Of a stretch of 64,000 nucleotides of DNA, positions 1,627-50,030 are shown piece by piece (position 1 is the stretch's first letter; every line of letters starts with the position of its first letter). Below the pieces are notes generated by a model that saw only the letters and a list, made by a program, of their open reading frames with translations, made no database searches and was not told the origin of the DNA. Made by a program: the position numbers and the translations under genes. The stretch lies in sequence record OL770107; one strand, given 5' to 3'. This DNA comes from Escherichia phage CLB_P2.

Positions 1627-4600
1627 TTAGTTTAACTTAGCTTCAAGTTCTTTTACTTTAGCCGACAGAGTTTTAACTGCTTCAATTAATAGAGCAACTT
1701 GTGCCTGAGTAGAAACTGTCAGAACTTTATTACCTTTGATATCTTCAACTTCACGAATAGCTTCAGGTAATACTTCATTCAATTTCTGTGCAATAACACC
1801 TGCTTCAGTGTGAACAACCTCTCCACCAATATAATCAGCTTTATCATAGATTAAACCATCAAGCTGTTCAACCTTTTCAAGAGCGTTTTCAATTGGTTTG
1901 AAGTTTGATTTCAAACGAATATCAGAACGAATATAAACGTTTGGAGCATTTATATTCATATCTGAATAAGTGTCACCACCTTGGAATCGCATACGGCGAG
2001 AAGCATTAGTCCAAACTTCTAAAAGACCGTCACCAACTTGTCTAAAACCAGTATCGCTATCCCCAATTACAAGTGAGTTACCACCAAACCCGTTTATTGT
2101 GTTAATACCGAAGGCACTTGTTTGTGGTAGCAGTACTTTACCTGGACACTCTAAAGTACCGTCCATTACAAAGCGCCATCTTGCTTGTTGGCCATTAGCA
2201 TTGTCGCCACGTATACGAATAATACCATCACGCCATCCAGCTGTGGTACCAGAACCAACCCAACCAAACTCAAAGGTCTGACGATAACCTGCTGAACCAT
2301 AGTTACTCCACGCTCCGACAATAGGATAATAACTACCTGAATTGGATAAATCACCATGGTCTGCCATAAAGGTGATTTTAGGTTTCATTGCATCTGAGTT
2401 ATCACCCCAGCCTGCAGGTGAACGTGCAGAAGAAACTACACGAGAGGTAATATTACCAAGGTTTGTATTACCGCCTGTAACGTTTAATCCGCCACCAGTA
2501 ATATTCAGACCGTGGTTCATACCAACGCGACCATCAGCCATATTAATAGAGAAAGGTCTTAAGCCATTCCAATCACCATTAGCCGCATCGGGTTTTTCTG
2601 TCGTATTTTTATCTGTAGCTAAAATATAAAAACTTCCACCGTCGTTTCTAAGTAAAGCAGCATTAGAATCTAAATCATTACCTTTAGATTTAATACGCAT
2701 ACCTTTTTGGTTATTGGTAACATATTCACCACGAGTAACAATATCTGATTCACCAGCAGCAAACATTCCGTCAATATTGTTCAGCATTCTTACAGATTTA
2801 CCTACAATATGACCTTCAGGTAATGTTTCTACCAAAGGCTGGATGCCGCTATCCATACCTACTACGGTTACTTTACTATTGCTACTGCATGTATATTCTA
2901 CTACTAAAGAATTAGAATATCCACCCAAATAAACGTAAATATCATAGATATCTTCGCTTGTATTAACCGAAGCAATCTGGGAAATAGCTTCAGAAGTCCT
3001 ATTCCACAACGTAGCATTAAGGCCTTTAGGGTTATTATTACCAGTTCTAAGGATTATTTCAGCTATTGAAGCCTGACCATAACTTTTAAAATTAAATCCG
3101 GAACCACCAAATATTTTAAAAGATACCGTGCCTGTTGACTGCGGAATTTCTACAGTAGCAAATTTATACCAACCTGTAGTAGCACCACCCGACCATCCGC
3201 CCATATTAACTTTATGGTCTAATGTTGAATTCAGGTTTTTAAAGTTGTCTAAGGTAGAACTGCCTGTAATGTTACCATCTGTACCAATACGAATATCAGA
3301 ACCTATTTTAAGAGGCTTGGTTATATCAACAGTATCAGAGTTTAATGCAATACCATGTGAATAAGTATAGTTATGTAAACGAACAACGTTACCGCCGTCA
3401 CCAATACCAAGATACCATTTTGTAACGTCTGCTTTACGTCCTTGGATAAAGTTGGATGCTGCTTGAGATGAAGCATTCAAAACAATACCATCGGAATCCA
3501 TATTAACACGCAACCTACAGTCAGTTTGGACAAATTTACTTACGTTGTCGACTGTAAAAAGTGGACCACCTGTAGATTTATTCCCCATTATAACGGTACC
3601 ATTGGCTAAATTAATAGACAACGGACGGAGGTCGCTTATTCCACCATTTTCACCGGCGTTTTGAAGGGTAGGAATAAGATGGAATGAAGCAGAAGAACCC
3701 GTTTCTGAACGACGGAAAATCAAACCATATTCAGCGTTCCAAATTCTTAATGCGTCAGCAGTACCACCCATTTTAACTTGGCCACTAATTGAAGCGCCGC
3801 CTTGGACAAACAGGCCATTAGTCATGGTAACATTGCCACCAAAAGAACCGGTACCGGATGCACTTATATTTCCGAGACTAGAAAAATGACCTGTTTCAAC
3901 AGAGCCGTTGAACTTGAAGTTAATAGGGCCTACAGTTTCACCGGAAGCCGGATTAGTACGTTGGCCATAGAAATAATATCCTTGTGAATCTGATACTTCG
4001 AATACAGTTTCTCTATTACCGCCACCGGCGTTAAATGAGTTACCCCATGCTTTCATGGTAACGGTATTTTTGTTCTGGCCATTTCGGGTACCAGCGTCCC
4101 AGTTAATGGTTTTTGTACCATCAACACCGGTAGGAGCAGTTAATGCCAATGCAGAAGTATTATTGTTTGCGTTAAGAACTAGGCCGTTATTAACCATTAA
4201 ACGCTGTGTAGTAGAAACTGTGCCGTCTGCTCTAAGATTTAATTCGTTAACCCCGGTCTTAATATTTAAAATACCAGGTTCAATAATCATACCTTCTGCC
4301 ATAGAAATGGCTACACGACCTGTGCCACGGAAATAATGATAAAGTTTACCATTAGAATTATAACCCAAATGGGTTTGGCCATCCCCGGAGTTATTACCAT
4401 CTATTTCGGTTCTAATAGAAACCATAGAAGAATTCTGGCCCGGCAGAAGCCAAGTAAGCCCCTGGTCATTACTACGTCCAAATATGGTTTTGCTTGTACC
4501 GCGGAAACCATCAGTAGTAATAGAAGCAACAGAATAACCTCCACCCACCAAATCAAAATTACCTTGTTTAATATATTTTAAACCGGTCGCGGTATCACCT

Positions 4601-5493
4601 AAAACTAGGTATTTGTCACCCATAGCTCCGGTATTACCATAATCGCTAGATGGGAAATCGGTAGTCATAGTACCTAATGCAAGGCTATTTCTACCAATCA
4701 AACGGCCGTCGTTACGAACACCGTATTGTTTAGACTGAGGAGTATTACCTGTCCACCAAGACATTTCATCAGCTTGGCCTAATTGAGCAGTACAAAGCTC
4801 ATGCCACATAGTGCCGCCAGATTTGGCACGAACTTTACGAAGATAGTTTACACCATTTGTTTCGCCGGTGCCCGGGTATACGTAATTAACTAAAGATTGG
4901 CTGTCATACTGTCCAAACGTTTTTGAATCATGGTTTACTAAGTTAACGGAAATTGTAGGTGTTGATATTGAAGTTAAAGCCGCTAATTTACGAGCCTGAA
5001 AAATACCACCATCATTAGAAATAAAGTGAAACTCTGAATTTTGCGCGCCGGCAGCAGTACCTTGGCGAACACGCATGGTAATTACGCCTTCATTTTCAAG
5101 CTGTGGTTTAGCATATAAAACACCACGTTCAGTGCCATTTGCGTTTTCAAACCAATAATGTGCGTTAGAAGTATCATTAGACGCTCTAGAATAAAATGAG
5201 CCCTTACTAGCTCGGAAAACAGGGGCAGTAATACTACCTTCAGTTCTCATACCTGCCGTACCTGTTTGGACAAGTTCACCATTTAAATTCAAAGTCCCGT
5301 TAATATTAACATCACCATCAACTTGTCCACCTTTAGCAAAGCCCAAATCAATAATCTGTCCTTGGTCTGACTTAGTAAAAATAGTGCGGTCACGCAAGTT
5401 AATAGCCAGTTCACCTTCATCTAACTGGGCTGCAGTAGGCTTGGCTCCTGCTATTTTACTTCTTTTAAATTGTATCGATTTTAAAGTAGCCAT
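1627..5493 (-). CDS. 37: long tail fibre distal subunit gp37
   Basis: 1288-aa ORF after gp36; conserved N-terminus MATLKSIQFKRSKIAGAKP...; position and size fit gp37. Confidence 0.85.
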   Translation of the reverse strand: MATLKSIQFKRSKIAGAKPTAAQLDEGELAINLRDRTIFTKSDQGQIIDLGFAKGGQVDGDVNINGTLNLNGELVQTGTAGMRTEGSITAPVFRASKGSFYSRASNDTSNAHYWFENANGTERGVLYAKPQLENEGVITMRVRQGTAAGAQNSEFHFISNDGGIFQARKLAALTSISTPTISVNLVNHDSKTFGQYDSQSLVNYVYPGTGETNGVNYLRKVRAKSGGTMWHELCTAQLGQADEMSWWTGNTPQSKQYGVRNDGRLIGRNSLALGTMTTDFPSSDYGNTGAMGDKYLVLGDTATGLKYIKQGNFDLVGGGYSVASITTDGFRGTSKTIFGRSNDQGLTWLLPGQNSSMVSIRTEIDGNNSGDGQTHLGYNSNGKLYHYFRGTGRVAISMAEGMIIEPGILNIKTGVNELNLRADGTVSTTQRLMVNNGLVLNANNNTSALALTAPTGVDGTKTINWDAGTRNGQNKNTVTMKAWGNSFNAGGGNRETVFEVSDSQGYYFYGQRTNPASGETVGPINFKFNGSVETGHFSSLGNISASGTGSFGGNVTMTNGLFVQGGASISGQVKMGGTADALRIWNAEYGLIFRRSETGSSASFHLIPTLQNAGENGGISDLRPLSINLANGTVIMGNKSTGGPLFTVDNVSKFVQTDCRLRVNMDSDGIVLNASSQAASNFIQGRKADVTKWYLGIGDGGNVVRLHNYTYSHGIALNSDTVDITKPLKIGSDIRIGTDGNITGSSTLDNFKNLNSTLDHKVNMGGWSGGATTGWYKFATVEIPQSTGTVSFKIFGGSGFNFKSYGQASIAEIILRTGNNNPKGLNATLWNRTSEAISQIASVNTSEDIYDIYVYLGGYSNSLVVEYTCSSNSKVTVVGMDSGIQPLVETLPEGHIVGKSVRMLNNIDGMFAAGESDIVTRGEYVTNNQKGMRIKSKGNDLDSNAALLRNDGGSFYILATDKNTTEKPDAANGDWNGLRPFSINMADGRVGMNHGLNITGGGLNVTGGNTNLGNITSRVVSSARSPAGWGDNSDAMKPKITFMADHGDLSNSGSYYPIVGAWSNYGSAGYRQTFEFGWVGSGTTAGWRDGIIRIRGDNANGQQARWRFVMDGTLECPGKVLLPQTSAFGINTINGFGGNSLVIGDSDTGFRQVGDGLLEVWTNASRRMRFQGGDTYSDMNINAPNVYIRSDIRLKSNFKPIENALEKVEQLDGLIYDKADYIGGEVVHTEAGVIAQKLNEVLPEAIREVEDIKGNKVLTVSTQAQVALLIEAVKTLSAKVKELEAKLN

Positions 5494-33859: not shown

Positions 33860-35365
33860 ATGATTTTAGATATTTTGAACGAAATTGCTGCTATCGATTC
33901 TACTAAAGCTAAAGAAGCTATTATTGCACGTGAAAAGGATAACGAGCTTCTGAAACGCGTTTATCGTATGGCTTATACCCGTCGTCTGAACTACGGTATT
34001 AAAAAGTGGCCAGAACCTGGATTTACGTCTCAGTCCTTTGGTATGATTACACTTGAAGACCTTCTTGATTTCGCTGAGTTCACACTAGCAACCCGTAAGA
34101 TTACAGGTAATGCTGCTATTGAAGAACTTGCCCAAATTATTGCCGATGCTAAGGGTCAAGATGCCGAGGTATTACGTCGCGTAATGATGCGTGACCTTGA
34201 ATGTGGTGCATCGATTTCTATTGCTAACAAGGTTTGGAAAGGTTTAATCCCTGAACAACCTCAAATGTTGGCTAGTTCTTATGACGAAGCCCTGATTAAG
34301 AAAAATATTAAATGGCCAGCGTTCGCTCAATTAAAAGCTGATGGTGCTCGTTGTTTTGCTGAAGTTCGTAACGACGGGGTAACATTCCTTACTCGCGGTG
34401 GTAATGAATATCAAGGGCTTACTAAATTAGCTGAAGAACTTATTAAAATGACTGAAGAAGCTCGTCAGCGTCATCCTAATGGTGTTATGATTGACGGTGA
34501 ATTAGTTTACCATACGCCTAAGGTTGAACCGAAAGCATCTAACGATTTGTTTAGTATGTTTGATGAAGAACTTCCAGAATTAAGTAAAGCCAAGGAATTC
34601 CAGACAGTCGCCGACCGTTCTACTTCAAATGGTTTGGCTAATAAGGCCCTCCAAGGAACCATTACTCCAGCTGAAGCAGATGGTATGGTATTGCAGGCAT
34701 GGGACTATGTTCCACTGGATGAAGTTTATTCTGAAGGCAAAATTAAAGGTCAAAAATACGATGTCCGTTTAGCGGCATTAGTACAAATGGCTGAAGGTTT
34801 TACACGTGTCGAGCCTATTGAAACGCAATGGGTTAATAATCTTGAAGAAGCTAAAGTCGTTTATAAGAAATATGTCGACCAAGGCCTGGAAGGTATTATC
34901 CTTAAGAACATGGACTCCTACTGGGAAAACCGCCGTTCTAAGAATCTTATCAAGTTCAAAGAAGTAATCGATATCGCTTTAGAAGTGGTAGGTTATTATG
35001 AACACTCGAAGGACCCTAACAAACTTGGTGGTGTTGAGTTAGTATCGCGGTGCCGTCGAATTACATCCGACTGTGGTTCAGGCTTTAAAGATACTACCCA
35101 TAAGAAAGATAAATCGGGTAAAAAGGTATTGATTCCATTAGAAGACCGACCTGATTTAGACCGTGAACTTCTTATGAAACAAGCTCGTGAAGGTAAGTTG
35201 ATTGGACGTATTGCTGACTGTGAATGTAATGGTTGGGTTCATTCTAAAGGACGTACAGATACTGTAGGTATTTTCCTTCCAATTATTAAAGGTTGGCGTT
35301 TCGATAAAACAGAAGCTGATACATTTGAAGATGTATTTGGCGATTGGTCTCAAACTGGACTATAA
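33860..35365 (+). CDS. 30: ATP-dependent DNA ligase gp30
   Basis: 501-aa ORF; adenylation motif FAQLKADGARCF; N-terminus MILDILNEIAAIDSTKAKEAII and extensive blocks match T4 DNA ligase. Confidence 0.9.
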   Translation: MILDILNEIAAIDSTKAKEAIIAREKDNELLKRVYRMAYTRRLNYGIKKWPEPGFTSQSFGMITLEDLLDFAEFTLATRKITGNAAIEELAQIIADAKGQDAEVLRRVMMRDLECGASISIANKVWKGLIPEQPQMLASSYDEALIKKNIKWPAFAQLKADGARCFAEVRNDGVTFLTRGGNEYQGLTKLAEELIKMTEEARQRHPNGVMIDGELVYHTPKVEPKASNDLFSMFDEELPELSKAKEFQTVADRSTSNGLANKALQGTITPAEADGMVLQAWDYVPLDEVYSEGKIKGQKYDVRLAALVQMAEGFTRVEPIETQWVNNLEEAKVVYKKYVDQGLEGIILKNMDSYWENRRSKNLIKFKEVIDIALEVVGYYEHSKDPNKLGGVELVSRCRRITSDCGSGFKDTTHKKDKSGKKVLIPLEDRPDLDRELLMKQAREGKLIGRIADCECNGWVHSKGRTDTVGIFLPIIKGWRFDKTEADTFEDVFGDWSQTGL

Positions 35366-35366
35366 T

Positions 35367-35540
35367 ATGAAAGCTTATTTAGAAACAATTGTAATATCGC
35401 ATACTACGGCGGCCCCAGCCGTTTCTCAAACCATTTTAGAATTCACAGATGAAGCCGCATATAATAAATTTATTGAAGTCTTTGATGGCTATGAAAAAGG
35501 CCCGACATTCGAAGTATATCGTACGTTGCTACCACTTTAA
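35367..35540 (+). CDS. hypothetical small protein
   Basis: About 57 aa from ATG overlapping the ligase stop. Confidence 0.3.
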   Translation: MKAYLETIVISHTTAAPAVSQTILEFTDEAAYNKFIEVFDGYEKGPTFEVYRTLLPL

Positions 35541-35558
35541 GGCCTTCGGGCCTTTTAT
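35539..35558 (+). terminator. hairpin terminator
   Basis: AAGGCC-TTCG-GGCCTT followed by TTATGG. Confidence 0.5.
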
Positions 35559-35590
35559 GGCATAAATACGGTTATTAAAGAGGAATTATT

Positions 35591-37651
35591 ATGACCGAAC
35601 AATTGAATGAGGTGTTTGAGTCCGAAGGCACCCTGCCTACTGTAAACTTAAACCCAAAACTTAAAGTACCCCAGATTTGGAAGATTGGCGATGCTGAATC
35701 CCAATTGGTTGCTCGTATGGTATCTTATGCCTCTGAAGGCGATGCTATTAAACAGGTTAAATTAGGTGATAAATACGCCCACGTTATCCTTATGAGCCTT
35801 TCAGCTAAAGGTTCTCCAGCCGAACTTAAAGGCGGCCTAGGCCCTACTCCTATTGATGCTATCAATACCATTTTCGACGTAGTATTCGAACAAGTTAAAA
35901 AGCTTCGTATGGATGCAGTGATGTTCCGTTTTCCAACCAAGAAAATGAAAGGACAAGGCCCTATTGTCCAACGGATTATCCAACGTTTGGTAGCACAGAA
36001 AACCGGTGGACGTTTTAAAGTAGTTCCTGCTATGTACCAATTTACCGGTAAACATACTTATATCCTAGTAGTTCGTAAACAAGCTGATATCGAAGATATC
36101 AAAGGTATGCCAGGAATTAATTCCGAATTATACACTAAGGTAGATTCTGATGTCGGTGAAGTTTATATTTCTAAAAAAGAAGGCGTACAGGTTACTAAAG
36201 AAACTGCTATTGCCGGCAGTATTGCCAAAGTTGAAGAACGTCGCACTGATAAAATGGTTATAACCAAGACTAAGATTTCTCGTCGCGCTATTGCAGCAAG
36301 CCAGTCTTTAGAATCCTATCGTAATGAAAGTGAACTGTTTAAGAAATATGAAGCCACTGCCGCTGATTTTAATAAACCGGCAACAGCTCCATTAATCCCT
36401 GAGGCCCAGGAAATGGTCACCAATAACAATTCTCCTGCGGCTAAAAATAAAGTTGCTAATATAGTAGCTGAAGGCACTGCTGAAGAGTTGCATTACGATT
36501 ATAAAATGTTTCCTCTTCACGGTATAGGTGAAATCCAAGAGAAAATTAAAGAGAAAATCCTTACAGCCATCAAAAACGAACCTTTGACATCTGTTAAAGC
36601 TCTAGAAAAATATGCCTCTGTTATTAATACAGTTTTTGAAGAATATAAAGGCGAATGGCTGGCTATACATAACAAAACTCGTAAAGGTCAACCTGACGAC
36701 GTCTGGAATGAATTAACCGAGTCCAAGTGGAAAGCCGCTAAGACCAAGTTCATTAAAAAACGTGTTTATAGTTTTGCTGGTGTAGGTGGCGGTATTATGG
36801 TTGATATTACTTTAGGTCATAGTGCAGATAAATACACCCCTTCTCAAAAACGTGGTATTCGTGAATATTGTGGCTCCGGATATGGCGATATCAATAACCT
36901 TCTTTTAGGACGATATAATCCTCAGAACTATGAAGTTATGAGCGAAAAAGATATCGAATCTGCAGTTAATAATTTGGATTCTGCTTTTGAAAACGGTGAT
37001 AGATTACCTGAAGGCATCACAGTTTATCGTGCACAGAGTATGACGTGGGCCATATATAATGCTTTAGTCAAAAATAAAGTATTCTATTTTAGAAACTTTG
37101 TATCAACTTCACTGACCCCTATTATTTTCGGTCGTTTTGGTGTTACTCATGCCGGTGTAGGTCTTTTAGAGCCTGAAGTTAGAGCCGAACTTACTGTAGA
37201 TAAAAATGATGAAGGTTATACTAAGGTCCAAGGTTCCGGCGACAAATTGGTTAAAGTTGGTTGGGCCATTGACGGTGCTTCTAAAGTTAACGTGGTATTC
37301 CCAGGACAACTTGGTATTGCTACTGAAGCTGAAATCATTCTTCCGCGCGGACTAATGGTAAAAATTAATAAGATAACAGATGCATCTAATAATGATGGTA
37401 TAATATCCAACAATACAAAACTCATTCAAGCTGAAGTTATGACATCAGATGAGCTTCAAGAATCTGTAGTGTATGATGGTGACGTACTAATGGAAACCGG
37501 TGAATTGGTTGTATACCAAGATGACTTCGATACTTCCGAAAGCCCTGTATCTTTTGATTCATTTGTTAAATCTACACGGTTTGACGTACTGCCTCTTTTG
37601 GCTTCATGCATAGACCTCTATGACATACCAGAAAAATTCATCCAAGGGTAA
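35591..37651 (+). CDS. alt: Alt-like ADP-ribosyltransferase (paralog 1)
   Basis: 686 aa (T4 Alt 682 aa); LNE near N-terminus; C-terminal R-S-ExE motifs YRAQ, STS, EAEIILPRG; N-terminal 230 aa shared with paralog 2. Confidence 0.8.
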   Translation: MTEQLNEVFESEGTLPTVNLNPKLKVPQIWKIGDAESQLVARMVSYASEGDAIKQVKLGDKYAHVILMSLSAKGSPAELKGGLGPTPIDAINTIFDVVFEQVKKLRMDAVMFRFPTKKMKGQGPIVQRIIQRLVAQKTGGRFKVVPAMYQFTGKHTYILVVRKQADIEDIKGMPGINSELYTKVDSDVGEVYISKKEGVQVTKETAIAGSIAKVEERRTDKMVITKTKISRRAIAASQSLESYRNESELFKKYEATAADFNKPATAPLIPEAQEMVTNNNSPAAKNKVANIVAEGTAEELHYDYKMFPLHGIGEIQEKIKEKILTAIKNEPLTSVKALEKYASVINTVFEEYKGEWLAIHNKTRKGQPDDVWNELTESKWKAAKTKFIKKRVYSFAGVGGGIMVDITLGHSADKYTPSQKRGIREYCGSGYGDINNLLLGRYNPQNYEVMSEKDIESAVNNLDSAFENGDRLPEGITVYRAQSMTWAIYNALVKNKVFYFRNFVSTSLTPIIFGRFGVTHAGVGLLEPEVRAELTVDKNDEGYTKVQGSGDKLVKVGWAIDGASKVNVVFPGQLGIATEAEIILPRGLMVKINKITDASNNDGIISNNTKLIQAEVMTSDELQESVVYDGDVLMETGELVVYQDDFDTSESPVSFDSFVKSTRFDVLPLLASCIDLYDIPEKFIQG

Positions 37652-37654
37652 ATA

Positions 37655-39778
37655 ATGGAAAATTTAAACGAAGTTTTTGATAGTGATTCCGCTAAAAACT
37701 ATCCAGTAACAAATCTTAAGCCAGGCTCAGGTATCCCACAGATTTTCTCTATCCAAGCACCAGGTAATGATAACCTGGTTGCTCGTATGGTATCTTATGC
37801 GTCTCAAGGAGACGCTATTAAAATGGTTAAGCCTGGCGACAAATATGTCCACGTTATTCTAATGAGTTTGTCAAGCAAGGGTGCTCCGGCTGAACTCAAA
37901 GGTGGGCTTGGTTCCGACCCGCTTGGTGCATTGAATACTATTTTCGATACGATATATGAACAAGTAAACAAACTTAAAATGGATGCAGTTTTGTTCCGTT
38001 TCCCTACCAAGAAAATGAAAGGTAAGGGTCCTACTGTTCAGCGGGTATTAGCTCGTTTGGTGATGGCACGTACCGGTGGTAAGTTTAAAGTTGTTGATAA
38101 CATGTTCCAATTCAGTGGAAAACATACCTATGTTCTTTTAGTACGTCGCGGCACTAATATCGAAGATATCAAGGGTATGCCTGAAATTGATGCTGACCTT
38201 TATACCAAGGTTGAGTCTAAAGTTGGTGAAGTTTATGTTTCTAAGAAAACTGGCCGGGCCGTAAGTAAGGTCGAAGCCGTGGCGGCATCTATTGCACAGG
38301 TTGAAGAGAAACGTACCGATAAGGCTGTTATCTCTCGTACTAAGATTTCTCGTCGTATGGCTGCAGCAGCACAGTATTCTACTGCCGAACCTGAAACTTT
38401 ATCCCCTAAAGAATTGCAGGTTTATAATGAGTTTGAAGCTTCTGTACCTGTTCATTCGGCTGAAGGTCCTGAGAACGAAGGTATTGAACAAATTAGCCAG
38501 AACTTTAAAAAAGGTGCTATTACTAAAATGCGTCAGGCCTCTCAGTTTAAATCTAAGAGTGAGGACCTTGCCAACTTTAGATACACCATTGCTCTCACAC
38601 ACGCTTTAATGACTGATAGTAAATTTAAACTAAATTATGCTAATAGAGATAAACAAGGGTTTGAAATTTACTCTAATAATATGGCATTTTTTAATACGGA
38701 AGTCGATAGACTTTTAAGCGGCCTTTCTCAAATCAATACTACCAATAGTCTGGATATTATTAAGAGAATTGTTAATAACCTGAGTGCCCGTTTTCAGGGG
38801 TCTCCTTCAGAGAAAGCATCCCGAATTGCTTTCGCTATGGAAGCCGTTTATAAACTGATTAACGATTCTATTAGCGATGCATATGCTTATTCAGGCGAGC
38901 TCATTAAACCTAAGGGCTTGACCAAAGACGAAAGTAATGCCATTATTGAATATTGTGCGGCTGAATATGCTCCTATGAACTTATTCCTTTTAGGTAAACC
39001 TGAATCCGAAAACAATACAACAGCTATTAAATTGATTAAGGATTTAGACTCAGCATTTACCAAGGGTATTAAACTTCCTAAAGGTACTATTTTGTATCGT
39101 GGTCAGGATTTACCATACAAAATTCTGCGCCATAATATTGATAACAAAACCTTTTACTTTAAGAACTTTGTATCCGCTTCATTAAAGCCTAATATCTTTG
39201 GTGAATTTGGTAAAAATTATATGGCCCTCGACAACCAAGCAGTTTTTGTTGGTGATGAAGGTTCTTTATCCTCCGCCGATGAGTTGTTTAAATTGGCCAG
39301 TGGTAGTTCATCTGACGTAGGTGAAGTTGATGATGAAGAGGTAGAATGGGAAGAAGACGAGTTTGGTAATCCAATTGCACCTGAAGGCCCTGCAGACAGG
39401 ATTGCTGAAATTGGTATGGTTATTCGAGGTGCTGAAGCAGTTAAAGTTATCGCTCCTGGTGACCTTACAGAATATGCCGAAGAAGCGGAAATTATCCTTC
39501 CGCGCGGATTATTGTTGAAGGTTGATAAAGTAGCAGCTTTTGCTATGAATGATAGGGTATCTCACAAATACCTTATGGAAGCTACAGTGACATCTCCTTC
39601 AGAACTCAGTGAGTCCGTTTACGATGGTGACCATCTGATGGAAACCGGCGAAGTTAAATTGATGAATGGGTTTAAAGAATTCCTAGTTTCAGAATCTGTT
39701 TCAGAAAGTAACGAGGCTATGGAAATCCTTGCTGCATCTTTGGACATCTCTTCTTTACCAAATAAATTCAAAATGTAG
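37655..39778 (+). CDS. Alt-like ADP-ribosyltransferase (paralog 2)
   Basis: 707 aa; same N-terminal module and C-terminal YRGQ / SAS / EAEIILPRG motifs; unrelated central 250 aa and acidic insert DDEEVEWEEDEFG. Confidence 0.75.
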   Translation: MENLNEVFDSDSAKNYPVTNLKPGSGIPQIFSIQAPGNDNLVARMVSYASQGDAIKMVKPGDKYVHVILMSLSSKGAPAELKGGLGSDPLGALNTIFDTIYEQVNKLKMDAVLFRFPTKKMKGKGPTVQRVLARLVMARTGGKFKVVDNMFQFSGKHTYVLLVRRGTNIEDIKGMPEIDADLYTKVESKVGEVYVSKKTGRAVSKVEAVAASIAQVEEKRTDKAVISRTKISRRMAAAAQYSTAEPETLSPKELQVYNEFEASVPVHSAEGPENEGIEQISQNFKKGAITKMRQASQFKSKSEDLANFRYTIALTHALMTDSKFKLNYANRDKQGFEIYSNNMAFFNTEVDRLLSGLSQINTTNSLDIIKRIVNNLSARFQGSPSEKASRIAFAMEAVYKLINDSISDAYAYSGELIKPKGLTKDESNAIIEYCAAEYAPMNLFLLGKPESENNTTAIKLIKDLDSAFTKGIKLPKGTILYRGQDLPYKILRHNIDNKTFYFKNFVSASLKPNIFGEFGKNYMALDNQAVFVGDEGSLSSADELFKLASGSSSDVGEVDDEEVEWEEDEFGNPIAPEGPADRIAEIGMVIRGAEAVKVIAPGDLTEYAEEAEIILPRGLLLKVDKVAAFAMNDRVSHKYLMEATVTSPSELSESVYDGDHLMETGEVKLMNGFKEFLVSESVSESNEAMEILAASLDISSLPNKFKM

Positions 39779-39835: not shown

Positions 39836-40126
39836 ATGAAATCTGCATTCCGTTTTAATGGTCAAGAACTGGTAGTTGAAAACGTTATCCCTGCTTCTGA
39901 AGAGTTCGACAGTGCAGTAGGTAATGAATTACGTCGAGTTTTCGGCGAAGACAAACAGTTCGACTTACGCCCGGTTGAAAATTTTTCACAACCTGAGCAA
40001 ACCGAAAATATTTTTAATGGTGTAGTAACCGGTCAGCTTGAATCTGAAGCTCCTATTTCTATCACGGTCTTTGTTAAAAAGCAGCCATTAATGACCGCTG
40101 CAGGTTTTATCTCGTTCCGTAAATAA
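39836..40126 (+). CDS. hypothetical protein
   Basis: 96-aa ORF behind cassette promoter. Confidence 0.4.
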   Translation: MKSAFRFNGQELVVENVIPASEEFDSAVGNELRRVFGEDKQFDLRPVENFSQPEQTENIFNGVVTGQLESEAPISITVFVKKQPLMTAAGFISFRK

Positions 40127-40133
40127 ACCCCTA

Positions 40134-40159
40134 AAGGAGAGCGTAAGCTCTCCTTTTTT
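40134..40159. terminator. bidirectional terminator between convergent genes
   Basis: AGGAGAGC-GTAA-GCTCTCCT flanked by A-run and TTTTTT. Confidence 0.6.
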
Positions 40160-46350: not shown

Positions 46351-46362
46351 TATTTATAAATA
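46351..46362. promoter_or_regulatory. divergent late promoters (palindromic TATTTATAAATA) for genes 51 and 26
   Basis: TATAAATA readable on both strands within 12 nt, centred between the divergent 51 and 26 starts. Confidence 0.5.
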
Positions 46363-49988: not shown

Positions 49989-50010
49989 TTATAAATATAA
50001 TTATATTTAT
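49989..50010. promoter_or_regulatory. divergent late promoters for uvsW and the inh-like gene
   Basis: Plus-strand TATAAATA at about 49989-49996 and minus-strand TATAAATA at about 50003-50010. Confidence 0.45.
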
Positions 50011-50030
50011 ACACCAACAAGAGACTAATT

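Follow-up and report, generated by a model that had tools for sequence, protein, structure and literature searches.

The two-gene alt locus of Escherichia phage CLB_P2 and the modular organization of its Alt-family proteins

Organization of the alt locus

Alt is the textbook example of a head-injected enzyme that reprograms the host, and nearly all experiments on it have been carried out in T4. Late synthesis, packaging of about 40 molecules into each head and ejection together with the phage DNA count among the hallmarks of the T4 Alt family. Here we analysed a tandem pair of Alt-family ADP-ribosyltransferase (ART) genes, altA and altB, in a stretch of 64,000 nucleotides (nt) from Escherichia phage CLB_P2 (record OL770107), hereafter the window. 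A sequence-only reading of this DNA had proposed two adjacent open reading frames (ORFs) of 686 and 707 amino acids (aa) at this place, and both are indeed found there on the plus strand (Table 1); minor numerical errors aside, its description of them proves accurate. The queried 4.2 kb of the alt region are 100% identical to Dhakavirus CLBP2 (OZ035781.1, a record without annotation) and 94-97% identical to phages dhaeg, dhabil, Esco_phi_B-01 and JS10. The protein-database entries of AltA and AltB are both titled 'hypothetical protein [Escherichia phage CLB_P2]'.

The gene order, with DNA ligase (gene 30) followed by alt.1, altA, altB, alt.-3 and the convergent baseplate genes 54/48/29, matches that of T4 and JS10. 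The gap between altA and altB is 3 nt, as is that between alt and alt.-1 in T4, and a Shine-Dalgarno-like AAGGG for altB is located within the end of altA. For the alt.1 homologue, the program-made ORF list uses a TTG at 35325 instead of the ATG adopted here.

The tandem arrangement is real but already known, and it is annotated in hundreds of related phages. The pair is named alta/altb in JS10 and IME08, the Dhakaviruses MX01, QL01, AnYang and C6 carry three alt genes each, AdolfPortmann (a BASEL Tequatrovirus) has genes named 'Alt' and 'Alt2', and Aeromonas phage L9-6 has two copies. A full-length alt duplicate was also described in Aeromonas phage 44RR (Nolan et al. 2006, PMC1524935). The copy-number comparison across T4-like phages, suggested by the sequence-only reading as a check, gives one to three copies per phage. 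For the Alt pair of 6phi13, divergence after duplication and a wider target range have been proposed (2026, PMC13600099). The biological reading of the pair is essentially the accepted annotation, and the idea of different targets is not new either.

Upstream of altA, the hairpin AAGGCCTTCGGGCCTT is invariant in CLBP2, JS10, MX01, AdolfPortmann and T4, though the flanking sequences differ. The terminator scan misses this hairpin because its T-run is short; a terminator upstream of alt had been predicted in five of six T4-like genomes (Nolan et al. 2006, PMC1524935). Right after the hairpin, the box CATAAATA occupies the position of TATAAATA in T4 and AdolfPortmann, and this C variant is present in three Dhakaviruses. 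No exact TATAAATA was found upstream of altA or altB, and CATAAATA could act as the late promoter. The scan for sigma-70 promoters and terminators did not exceed the shuffled expectation, save for the terminator at 40133.

Table 1. Coordinates of the genes, protein regions and signals of the CLB_P2 alt locus (positions in the window)
Feature	Position	Strand	Description
alt.1 homologue	35367-35540	+	57 aa from ATG; slot annotated alt.1 in JS10 and T4
Hairpin AAGGCC-TTCG-GGCCTT	35539-35554	+	AAGGCCTTCGGGCCTT; terminator-like, upstream of altA
Late-promoter-like box CATAAATA	35561-35568	+	7/8 match to the T4 late consensus TATAAATA
altA	35591-37651	+	Alt-family ADP-ribosyltransferase, 686 aa, 76.1 kDa precursor, slot-1 'Alt'
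AltA N-terminal propeptide (predicted)	35591-35611	+	MTEQLNE; cut after E7; homologous to T4 ITE-6
AltA N-terminal alpha/beta module	35612-36304	+	residues 8-238; 65% identical to the AltB module
AltA helical centre	36305-36835	+	residues 239-415; class A (T4/T2 Alt class); pLDDT >90, all helices
AltA ART catalytic domain	36836-37462	+	residues 416-624; R480, S505, E579, E581
AltA C-terminal propeptide (predicted)	37463-37648	+	62 aa, pI 4.05; cut after LQE-624
altB	37655-39778	+	second Alt paralogue, 707 aa, 77.8 kDa precursor; orthologue of altb (JS10, IME08) and 'Alt2' (Tequatroviruses)
AltB N-terminal propeptide (predicted)	37655-37672	+	MENLNE; cut after E6
AltB N-terminal alpha/beta module	37673-38374	+	residues 7-240
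AltB helical centre	38375-38920	+	residues 241-422; class B
AltB ART catalytic domain	38921-39613	+	residues 423-653; R482, S507 (S-A-S), E610, E612
Acidic loop insert SSSDVGEVDDEEVEWEEDEFGNPIAPEG	39305-39388	+	AltB residues 551-578, predicted disordered, between S-x-S and E-x-E
AltB C-terminal propeptide (predicted)	39614-39775	+	54 aa, pI 4.35; cut after LSE-653
alt.-3 homologue	39836-40126	+	96 aa, function unknown; annotated alt.-3 in JS10 and T4; last gene of the predicted operon
Intrinsic-terminator-like hairpin	40133-40156	+	stem of 10 bp followed by TTTTGTT; separates the alt operon from convergent gene 54

Family membership, catalytic residues and predicted processing

Both proteins match Pfam family PF03496 (ADPrib_exo_Tox) above its gathering score, with E values of 5e-32 for AltA and 6e-18 for AltB. 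PHROG 802, 'Alt-like RNA polymerase ADP-ribosyltransferase', is matched end-to-end (6e-258 and 1.7e-251, respectively). Homology to T4 Alt extends over the full length, with 47.8% identity over residues 3-686 of AltA and 33% over residues 1-705 of AltB (E 1.8e-105); despite this end-to-end match, the centre of AltB is not alignable to that of T4 Alt. The JS10 orthologues are closer, AltA being 92% identical to alta and AltB 98.7% to altb, and AltB is conserved at 95-99% across Dhakaviruses. NCBIfam has no family for AltA or AltB, and a sequence search of PDB chains with AltA returned nothing at E<=0.01, hence no sequence-detectable Alt relative with a solved structure. A further Pfam family, PF26846, presumably covers the N-terminal module of Alt; it is precomputed together with PF03496 on all database homologues, and the Pfam-A scan gave no PF26846 for AltA or AltB.

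AlphaFold 2 models have a mean predicted local distance difference test (pLDDT) of 83 and a predicted template modelling score (pTM) of 0.71 for AltA, against 74 and 0.69 for AltB. In both models the C-terminal domain is predicted to adopt the ART fold of the C3/VIP2-like R-S-E superfamily. All catalytic motifs quoted in the sequence-only reading are present, namely VYRAQ (R480), STS (S505) and EAEIILPRG (E579/E581) in AltA, and LYRGQ (R482), SAS (S507) and E610/E612 in AltB. Furthermore, no member of the family alignment (71-73 sequences) departs from the Ser or from either Glu, and the Arg is conserved at 90% or more. Both copies thus keep R, S and E-x-E, the loss of which from either one had been named as a reason to abandon the proposal.

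A specific trait of AltB is the insert SSSDVGEVDDEEVEWEEDEFGNPIAPEG, in which 12 of 28 residues are D or E and none is K or R. This acidic insert had been noticed before, but it lies inside the ART domain and not in the centre of the protein. Low-confidence zones of the AltB model (pLDDT <50) span residues 518-539, 547-566 and 572-581. Among the AltB sequences examined, only those of Dhakavirus (CLBP2, MX01) carry the insert; it is absent from the 72%-identical orthologue P0002.

In T4, mass spectrometry has established that Alt is cut at ITE-6, which takes off six residues, and at LTE-619, which takes off 63 from the C-terminus; the mature protein has 68.2 kDa (PMC5694885; reviewed in PMC9026906). 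The T4 Alt sequence trimmed at both sites has a computed mass of 68.2 kDa, equal to the published one, which validates the site mapping used here. At the columns homologous to these T4 sites, AltA and AltB carry prohead-protease (gp21) motifs at both termini. The Glu of the N-terminal site is kept in 127 of 128 homologues, and that of the C-terminal site in 126 of 128, being invariant in the 73-sequence alignment; 118 of the 128 have L or I as the P3 residue of the C-terminal site. As judged from these alignments, each protein carries both T4-type sites, of which the sequence-only reading had missed the C-terminal one. Its N-terminal (L/I)-x-E site is well founded, LNE being homologous to the mapped ITE-6, and the position given, residues 5-7, is right for AltA but should be 4-6 for AltB. 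Cleavage at both sites would leave a mature AltA of 617 aa (68.3 kDa, isoelectric point (pI) 8.9) and a mature AltB of 647 aa (71.2 kDa, pI 6.1). The C-terminal propeptides are mostly modelled with low confidence in both proteins.

Modules of AltA and AltB and their proposed exchange

Pairwise alignment of AltA and AltB, proposed earlier as a check, reveals two similar segments flanking a non-alignable centre. By BLASTP, residues 3-238 of AltA and 2-240 of AltB are 65% identical (E 3e-104), which bears out the shared N-terminal module of about 230 aa, and residues 416-683 and 423-705 are 34% identical (E 2e-41). The 'shared ends' of the sequence-only reading are therefore both alignable, but to a very unequal degree. 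Residues 239-415 of AltA and 241-422 of AltB gave no significant BLASTP match; the lack of detectable similarity in the centre stands, though it concerns 177 and 182 aa rather than 250. By tblastn, the N-terminal module was found at 1818 places in 1201 phage records and the AltA-type centre in 787 phage records. The AltB-type centre occurs in 445, of which 43 match at >=95% and the others, mostly Tequatrovirus including T2, at ~45-48%.

BLAST clustering of 128 homologues gave a single cluster for the N-module and likewise for the ART domain. The centres, on the other hand, fall into class A with 93 members (AltA, T4 Alt and MX01 alt2 among them), class P with 17, class B with 8 (AltB among them) and singletons. 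Profile-profile comparison of the class A and class B centres by hhalign gave a probability of 1.3%, and no chain of intermediates joins them among 21 subclusters. Since the same test still joins class A members only 23% identical, at 96-99.7% probability, the method reaches deep and yet remains blank between A and B. A link between classes B and P reached 87% with pooled alignments but only 35% with finer subclusters, and we hold it unproven. When the AltB model was searched against BFVD with Foldseek, the matches were Alt homologues, the best being that of SP18 (TM 0.69/0.78); no class-A Alt was aligned across the centre, and T4 Alt is not among the 50 best matches listed. At the level of sequence, 'unrelated' centres thus means centres with no detectable homology, and nothing stronger.

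Could both centres nevertheless descend from one ancestral helical domain, diverged past recognition under diversifying selection after an old duplication of the whole gene? Both are predicted to be all-helical, with 6-7 helices of comparable length in a similar order, and the centres are nearly equal in length, so extreme divergence of a single domain is conceivable. In addition, the centre evolves fastest: AltA and T4 Alt share 34% identity in the centre against 60% in the ART domain, and pairs whose ART cores are >=85% identical drop to 62% in the centre. The duplication is also old, as synonymous divergence (dS) is saturated. The blank profile comparison, the missing intermediates and the ease with which the same test joins remote class A members argue against a common origin, and we consider it a serious but rather doubtful alternative. 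To the same doubtful extent, the paralogues would then differ by divergence along their entire C-terminal two thirds.

To what does the centre belong? In a regression of module identities over 7503 pairs from 123 full-length proteins, centre identity follows ART identity (coefficient 1.16, Spearman 0.90) rather than N-module identity (coefficient -0.03). In 46 pairs, N-modules at least 85% identical are combined with ART cores at most 55% identical. N-modules group by phage lineage and slot, and centre and ART core group jointly by cargo type across genera.

Comparison of the four closest relatives of each module provides several examples. The Alt of AdolfPortmann has an N-module 100% identical to that of T4 Alt and an ART core 64% identical, with T4 Alt not among the four closest for the centre. 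Relative to MX01 alt1, its centre is 67% and its ART core 95% identical, and here the N-module is not among the four closest. Similarly, the other alt of Bp7 has an N-module 91% identical to that of AltB, which is not among the four closest for centre and ART core; these resemble T4 Alt (61% and 78%), which in turn is not among the four closest for the N-module. Finally, AdolfPortmann Alt2 is 47%, 46% and 56% identical to AltB in N-module, centre and ART core, respectively; its N-module is 67% identical to that of T4 Alt, which is not among the four closest for centre and ART core.

The mosaic is also visible in the DNA. The alt gene of AdolfPortmann (positions 2901-4997 of its locus segment) is 95-99% identical to T4 alt over codons 1 to ~235, 85% at about codon 601 and 94-95% over the remainder starting at codon 626. 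Its interior of ~350 codons is only 43-70% identical to T4 and is nearer to Dhakavirus MX01 alt1, with 61-76% in the centre and 80-94% over most of the ART core. This interior looks to have been replaced between conserved flanks, across genera, and the contrast between its centre and its ART core suggests that exchange happened more than once or that the donor of the centre is unsampled. Since the centre tracks ART identity and the alt gene of AdolfPortmann is a mosaic, the exchangeable unit appears to be the centre together with the ART core, not the centre alone. The proposed swap of a target-recognition centre between shared ends is not supported in that form and holds only by half, as the interior that differs includes the catalytic core. 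'Shared ends' is still a fair description, provided that the ends are taken as the N-module and the region of the C-terminal propeptide; the catalytic core differs.

Smaller-scale variation is seen within Dhakavirus as well. At the DNA level, CLBP2 altA is 62-85% identical to JS10 and MX01 altA over codons ~376-600 (36716-37390); outside these codons, identity is 93-99% to JS10 and 88-99% when MX01 is included. The minimum of the tract, 62-65%, falls in the loop between S-x-S and E-x-E. The pattern points to an allelic replacement within the genus. In MX01, the N-module of alt2 (locus segment 5089-7134) is 88% identical to that of the neighbouring alt3 at a dS of 1.9. Its cargo is distinct, with a class-A centre ~23% identical to others and an ART domain nearest to that of Yersinia phage TG1 (50%). 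CLBP2 has no trace of such a middle alt gene, only 3 nt lying between altA and altB. Genes annotated as 'split' Alt, of ~270-480 aa, were met in Acinetobacter phages ZZ1 and Henu6 and in Citrobacter phage CF1 (BFVD matches), which suggests that N-module and cargo can exist as separate polypeptides.

Taken further, the alt locus could be a polymorphic array of injected effectors, in which a lineage-specific delivery frame, made of a folded and possibly GNAT-like N-module and two propeptides removed by protease, receives centre-plus-ART cassettes from at least three mutually unalignable centre classes. The cassettes would pass horizontally between genera through recombination inside this frame. 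One to three of them would be stacked, carrying anti-defence or take-over specificities shaped by an arms race, AltB/Alt2 being one that is widespread and uncharacterised. We give this extended view not quite an even chance. The internal proteins IPI-IPIII of T4, which have only a capsid-targeting sequence in common (PMC3012670), offer a likeness in working, as do polymorphic toxins: a constant delivery element is combined with diverse, horizontally exchanged cargo. The frame of Alt differs from that of the IP proteins, however: where those have a 10-aa peptide, Alt has a C-terminal propeptide and a folded domain of 230 aa, the latter being kept after maturation. We could recognise no immunity gene at the locus (the downstream alt.-3 was not analysed), and we do not assign the alt locus to the polymorphic toxin systems; the resemblance is one of mechanism only.

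Constraint on the two genes, proposed mechanism and known relatives

The N-module carries invariant Gly-rich and basic loops (L79, G84, P87, R113, G121). Together with the propeptides, it probably forms a phage-specific frame for incorporation into the prohead core or for tethering. A different role would follow if this module had a GNAT-like acyl-CoA transferase fold, that is, if it were a second enzymatic or ligand-binding domain that makes AltA and AltB bifunctional effectors. The invariant loops would suit such a role, as would the retention of the module in the mature protein, only 6-7 residues being trimmed. However, the module has no Pfam match at E up to 1, and a profile search of PDB sequences gave only chance-level hits (E >=0.43, trypanothione reductase). 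Sequence identity to the matches is 2-16%, and the two models are not independent, the N-modules being 65% identical. We therefore consider the GNAT assignment improbable.

N-modules are more similar within a genome than across genera, and ART cores show the opposite. The N-modules of AltA and AltB are 65-66% identical and those of AltA and T4 Alt 47%; likewise, T4 Alt and AdolfPortmann Alt2 share 67%, and AdolfPortmann Alt2 and CLBP2 AltB 47%. Such a pattern might reflect recent gene conversion between the tandem copies instead of functional constraint. But the N-modules of AltA and AltB differ by a dS of 1.44, with a nonsynonymous divergence (dN) of 0.31 and a third-position identity of 47%, and those of MX01 alt2 and alt3 by a dS of 1.89 despite 88% amino-acid identity. 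With dS saturated, any conversion is ancient, and recent conversion as the source of the likeness was rejected. The same values indicate that the duplication is old. The similarity is now held by purifying selection (dN/dS 0.05-0.2), and co-adaptation of both N-modules to one phage-specific partner, such as the prohead core, fits the pattern equally well. Conversion in place of constraint is thus quite unlikely, and the substitution pattern argues that purifying selection upholds the N-terminal likeness.

Relative to JS10, dN/dS is 0.04 in the N-module, 0.045 in the centre and 0.007 in the ART core of AltB, and 0.02, 0.17 and 0.12 in the corresponding regions of AltA, which indicates that both genes are under purifying constraint. 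T4 itself has kept only a remnant of the second gene. In the T4 record and in Nolan et al. 2006 (PMC1524935), alt.-1/alt.-2 are ascribed to a duplication of the start of alt. We compared T4 segment 5066-5451 with the Alt2 segment 5001-7058 of AdolfPortmann (locus-segment positions). The first ~350 nt are 94.7% identical, the last nucleotides and alt.-3 are 97.4% identical, and the two flank matches share 9 nt where they meet. Since both flanks match an intact Alt2, alt.-1/alt.-2 are a full-length Alt2 gene with an internal deletion of ~1.69 kb, not merely a duplicated start of alt. That altB is likewise a redundant or decaying copy, leaving AltA alone biologically relevant, is very unlikely: this loss was tolerated in T4, S-T-S is altered to S-A-S and a disordered acidic insert lies within the ART domain, but the 707-aa frame, R, the first S and E-x-E are intact, dN/dS against JS10 altb is 0.007-0.045 in all three regions, the protein is 95-99% conserved across Dhakaviruses and its Alt2-type centre recurs in 445 phage records.

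We propose the following mechanism. The genes altA, altB and alt.-3 would be expressed as one late transcript running from the CATAAATA box to the terminator at 40133-40156. By homology to T4 Alt, the 76-78 kDa precursors would enter the prohead core, where the prohead protease (gp21 homologue) would trim AltA after LNE-7 and LQE-624 and AltB after LNE-6 and LSE-653. The mature proteins would then leave the head with the DNA and modify arginines of host proteins by mono-ADP-ribosylation. By sequence, both share one build, in which the lineage-specific frame (N-module and two terminal propeptides) bears a cargo composed of the helical centre and the ART core. The two cargoes belong to different old classes, the T2/T6-type Alt in AltA and Alt2 in AltB. 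With a distinct centre, a 34%-identical ART core and an altered loop before E-x-E, they may reach different sets of targets, serving host take-over or anti-defence. That AltA and AltB act on different substrates is plausible, with indirect support from the Alt proteins of T4 and phage Bas37, which cannot stand in for each other against the Mokosh type I defence system (preprint 10.1101/2025.11.20.689424). According to reviews, ADP-ribosylation of the RNA polymerase alpha subunit and of other host proteins is shown for T4 Alt only.

Collectively, we consider CLB_P2 to carry the standard two-gene alt locus (Alt + Alt2) of T-even-type phages, functioning by this mechanism, with a probability of about 0.72. 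Several points weigh against it. AltB has S-A-S in place of S-T-S, the Thr of which is kept in 90% or more of family members. Its mature form is acidic (pI 6.1, compared with 8.4 for T4 Alt and 8.9 for AltA), which could affect co-packaging with DNA. One-mismatch TATAAATA sites are no commoner in the window than expected by chance, so only its position supports the CATAAATA box. Nothing singles out the centre over the loops of the ART domain as target determinant, and since T4 has lost Alt2, a phage can do without the second enzyme in some hosts at least. Literature searches gave no expression, virion-proteome or enzymatic data for AltA, AltB or the genus, and nothing usable on Dhakavirus virion proteomics or Alt2 biochemistry.

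Among the closest known systems is T4 Alt (gpAlt, NP_049811; PHROG 802; PF03496 and PF26846), an end-to-end homologue with 48% identity to AltA and 33% to AltB. It occupies the same slot between ligase/alt.1 and alt.-3/gene 54 and shares the upstream hairpin, the promoter position, the R-S-E residues and both gp21 sites. T4 differs in having a single intact alt copy and a third cargo subtype, whose centre and ART core are 61% and 78% identical to Bp7 and 49% and 80% to VR5, but only 34-35% and 60-64% to AltA. The alta/altb genes of JS10 and IME08 are orthologous to those of CLB_P2 and have the same layout, and MX01-type Dhakaviruses differ by their middle third gene. AltB itself shows the traits of the Tequatrovirus Alt2 (AdolfPortmann bas44_0032; T2), with the second slot, a class-B centre (46%) and the matching ART subtype (56%). 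The Tequatrovirus proteins differ in their N-module, which follows phage lineage (47% to AltB versus 67% to T4 Alt), and in a shorter loop before E-x-E that lacks the acidic run. More remotely, the C3/VIP2/iota-toxin-type ARTs of PF03496 have the catalytic fold and R, S-x-S and E-x-E in common with AltA and AltB. This relatedness is limited to the C-terminal third of Alt, and delivery is by secretion or a binary-toxin partner, as opposed to packaging in the phage head.

These comparisons make T4 atypical among T-even-type phages, as its second alt gene is deleted. A second injected ART (AltB/Alt2), and sometimes a third, would be present in hundreds of T-even-type phages, CLB_P2 and other therapeutic candidates among them. 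T4 Alt, unlike Bas37 Alt, restored evasion of Mokosh type I in the preprint cited above; because Alt variants differ against this defence, differences in cargo likely affect host range. In practice, AltB/Alt2 is marked out as a widespread, uncharacterised injected effector, the centre-plus-ART cassette as the unit for swap experiments, and the model of Alt maturation gains a second processing step with the conserved protease site at the C-terminus.

Elsewhere in the window, exact TATAAATA sites are enriched, with 13 found versus 6.45 expected and none of 100 shuffles reaching 13. Two back-to-back pairs on opposite strands, at 46351-46362 and 49990-50011, are possibly divergent late promoters.

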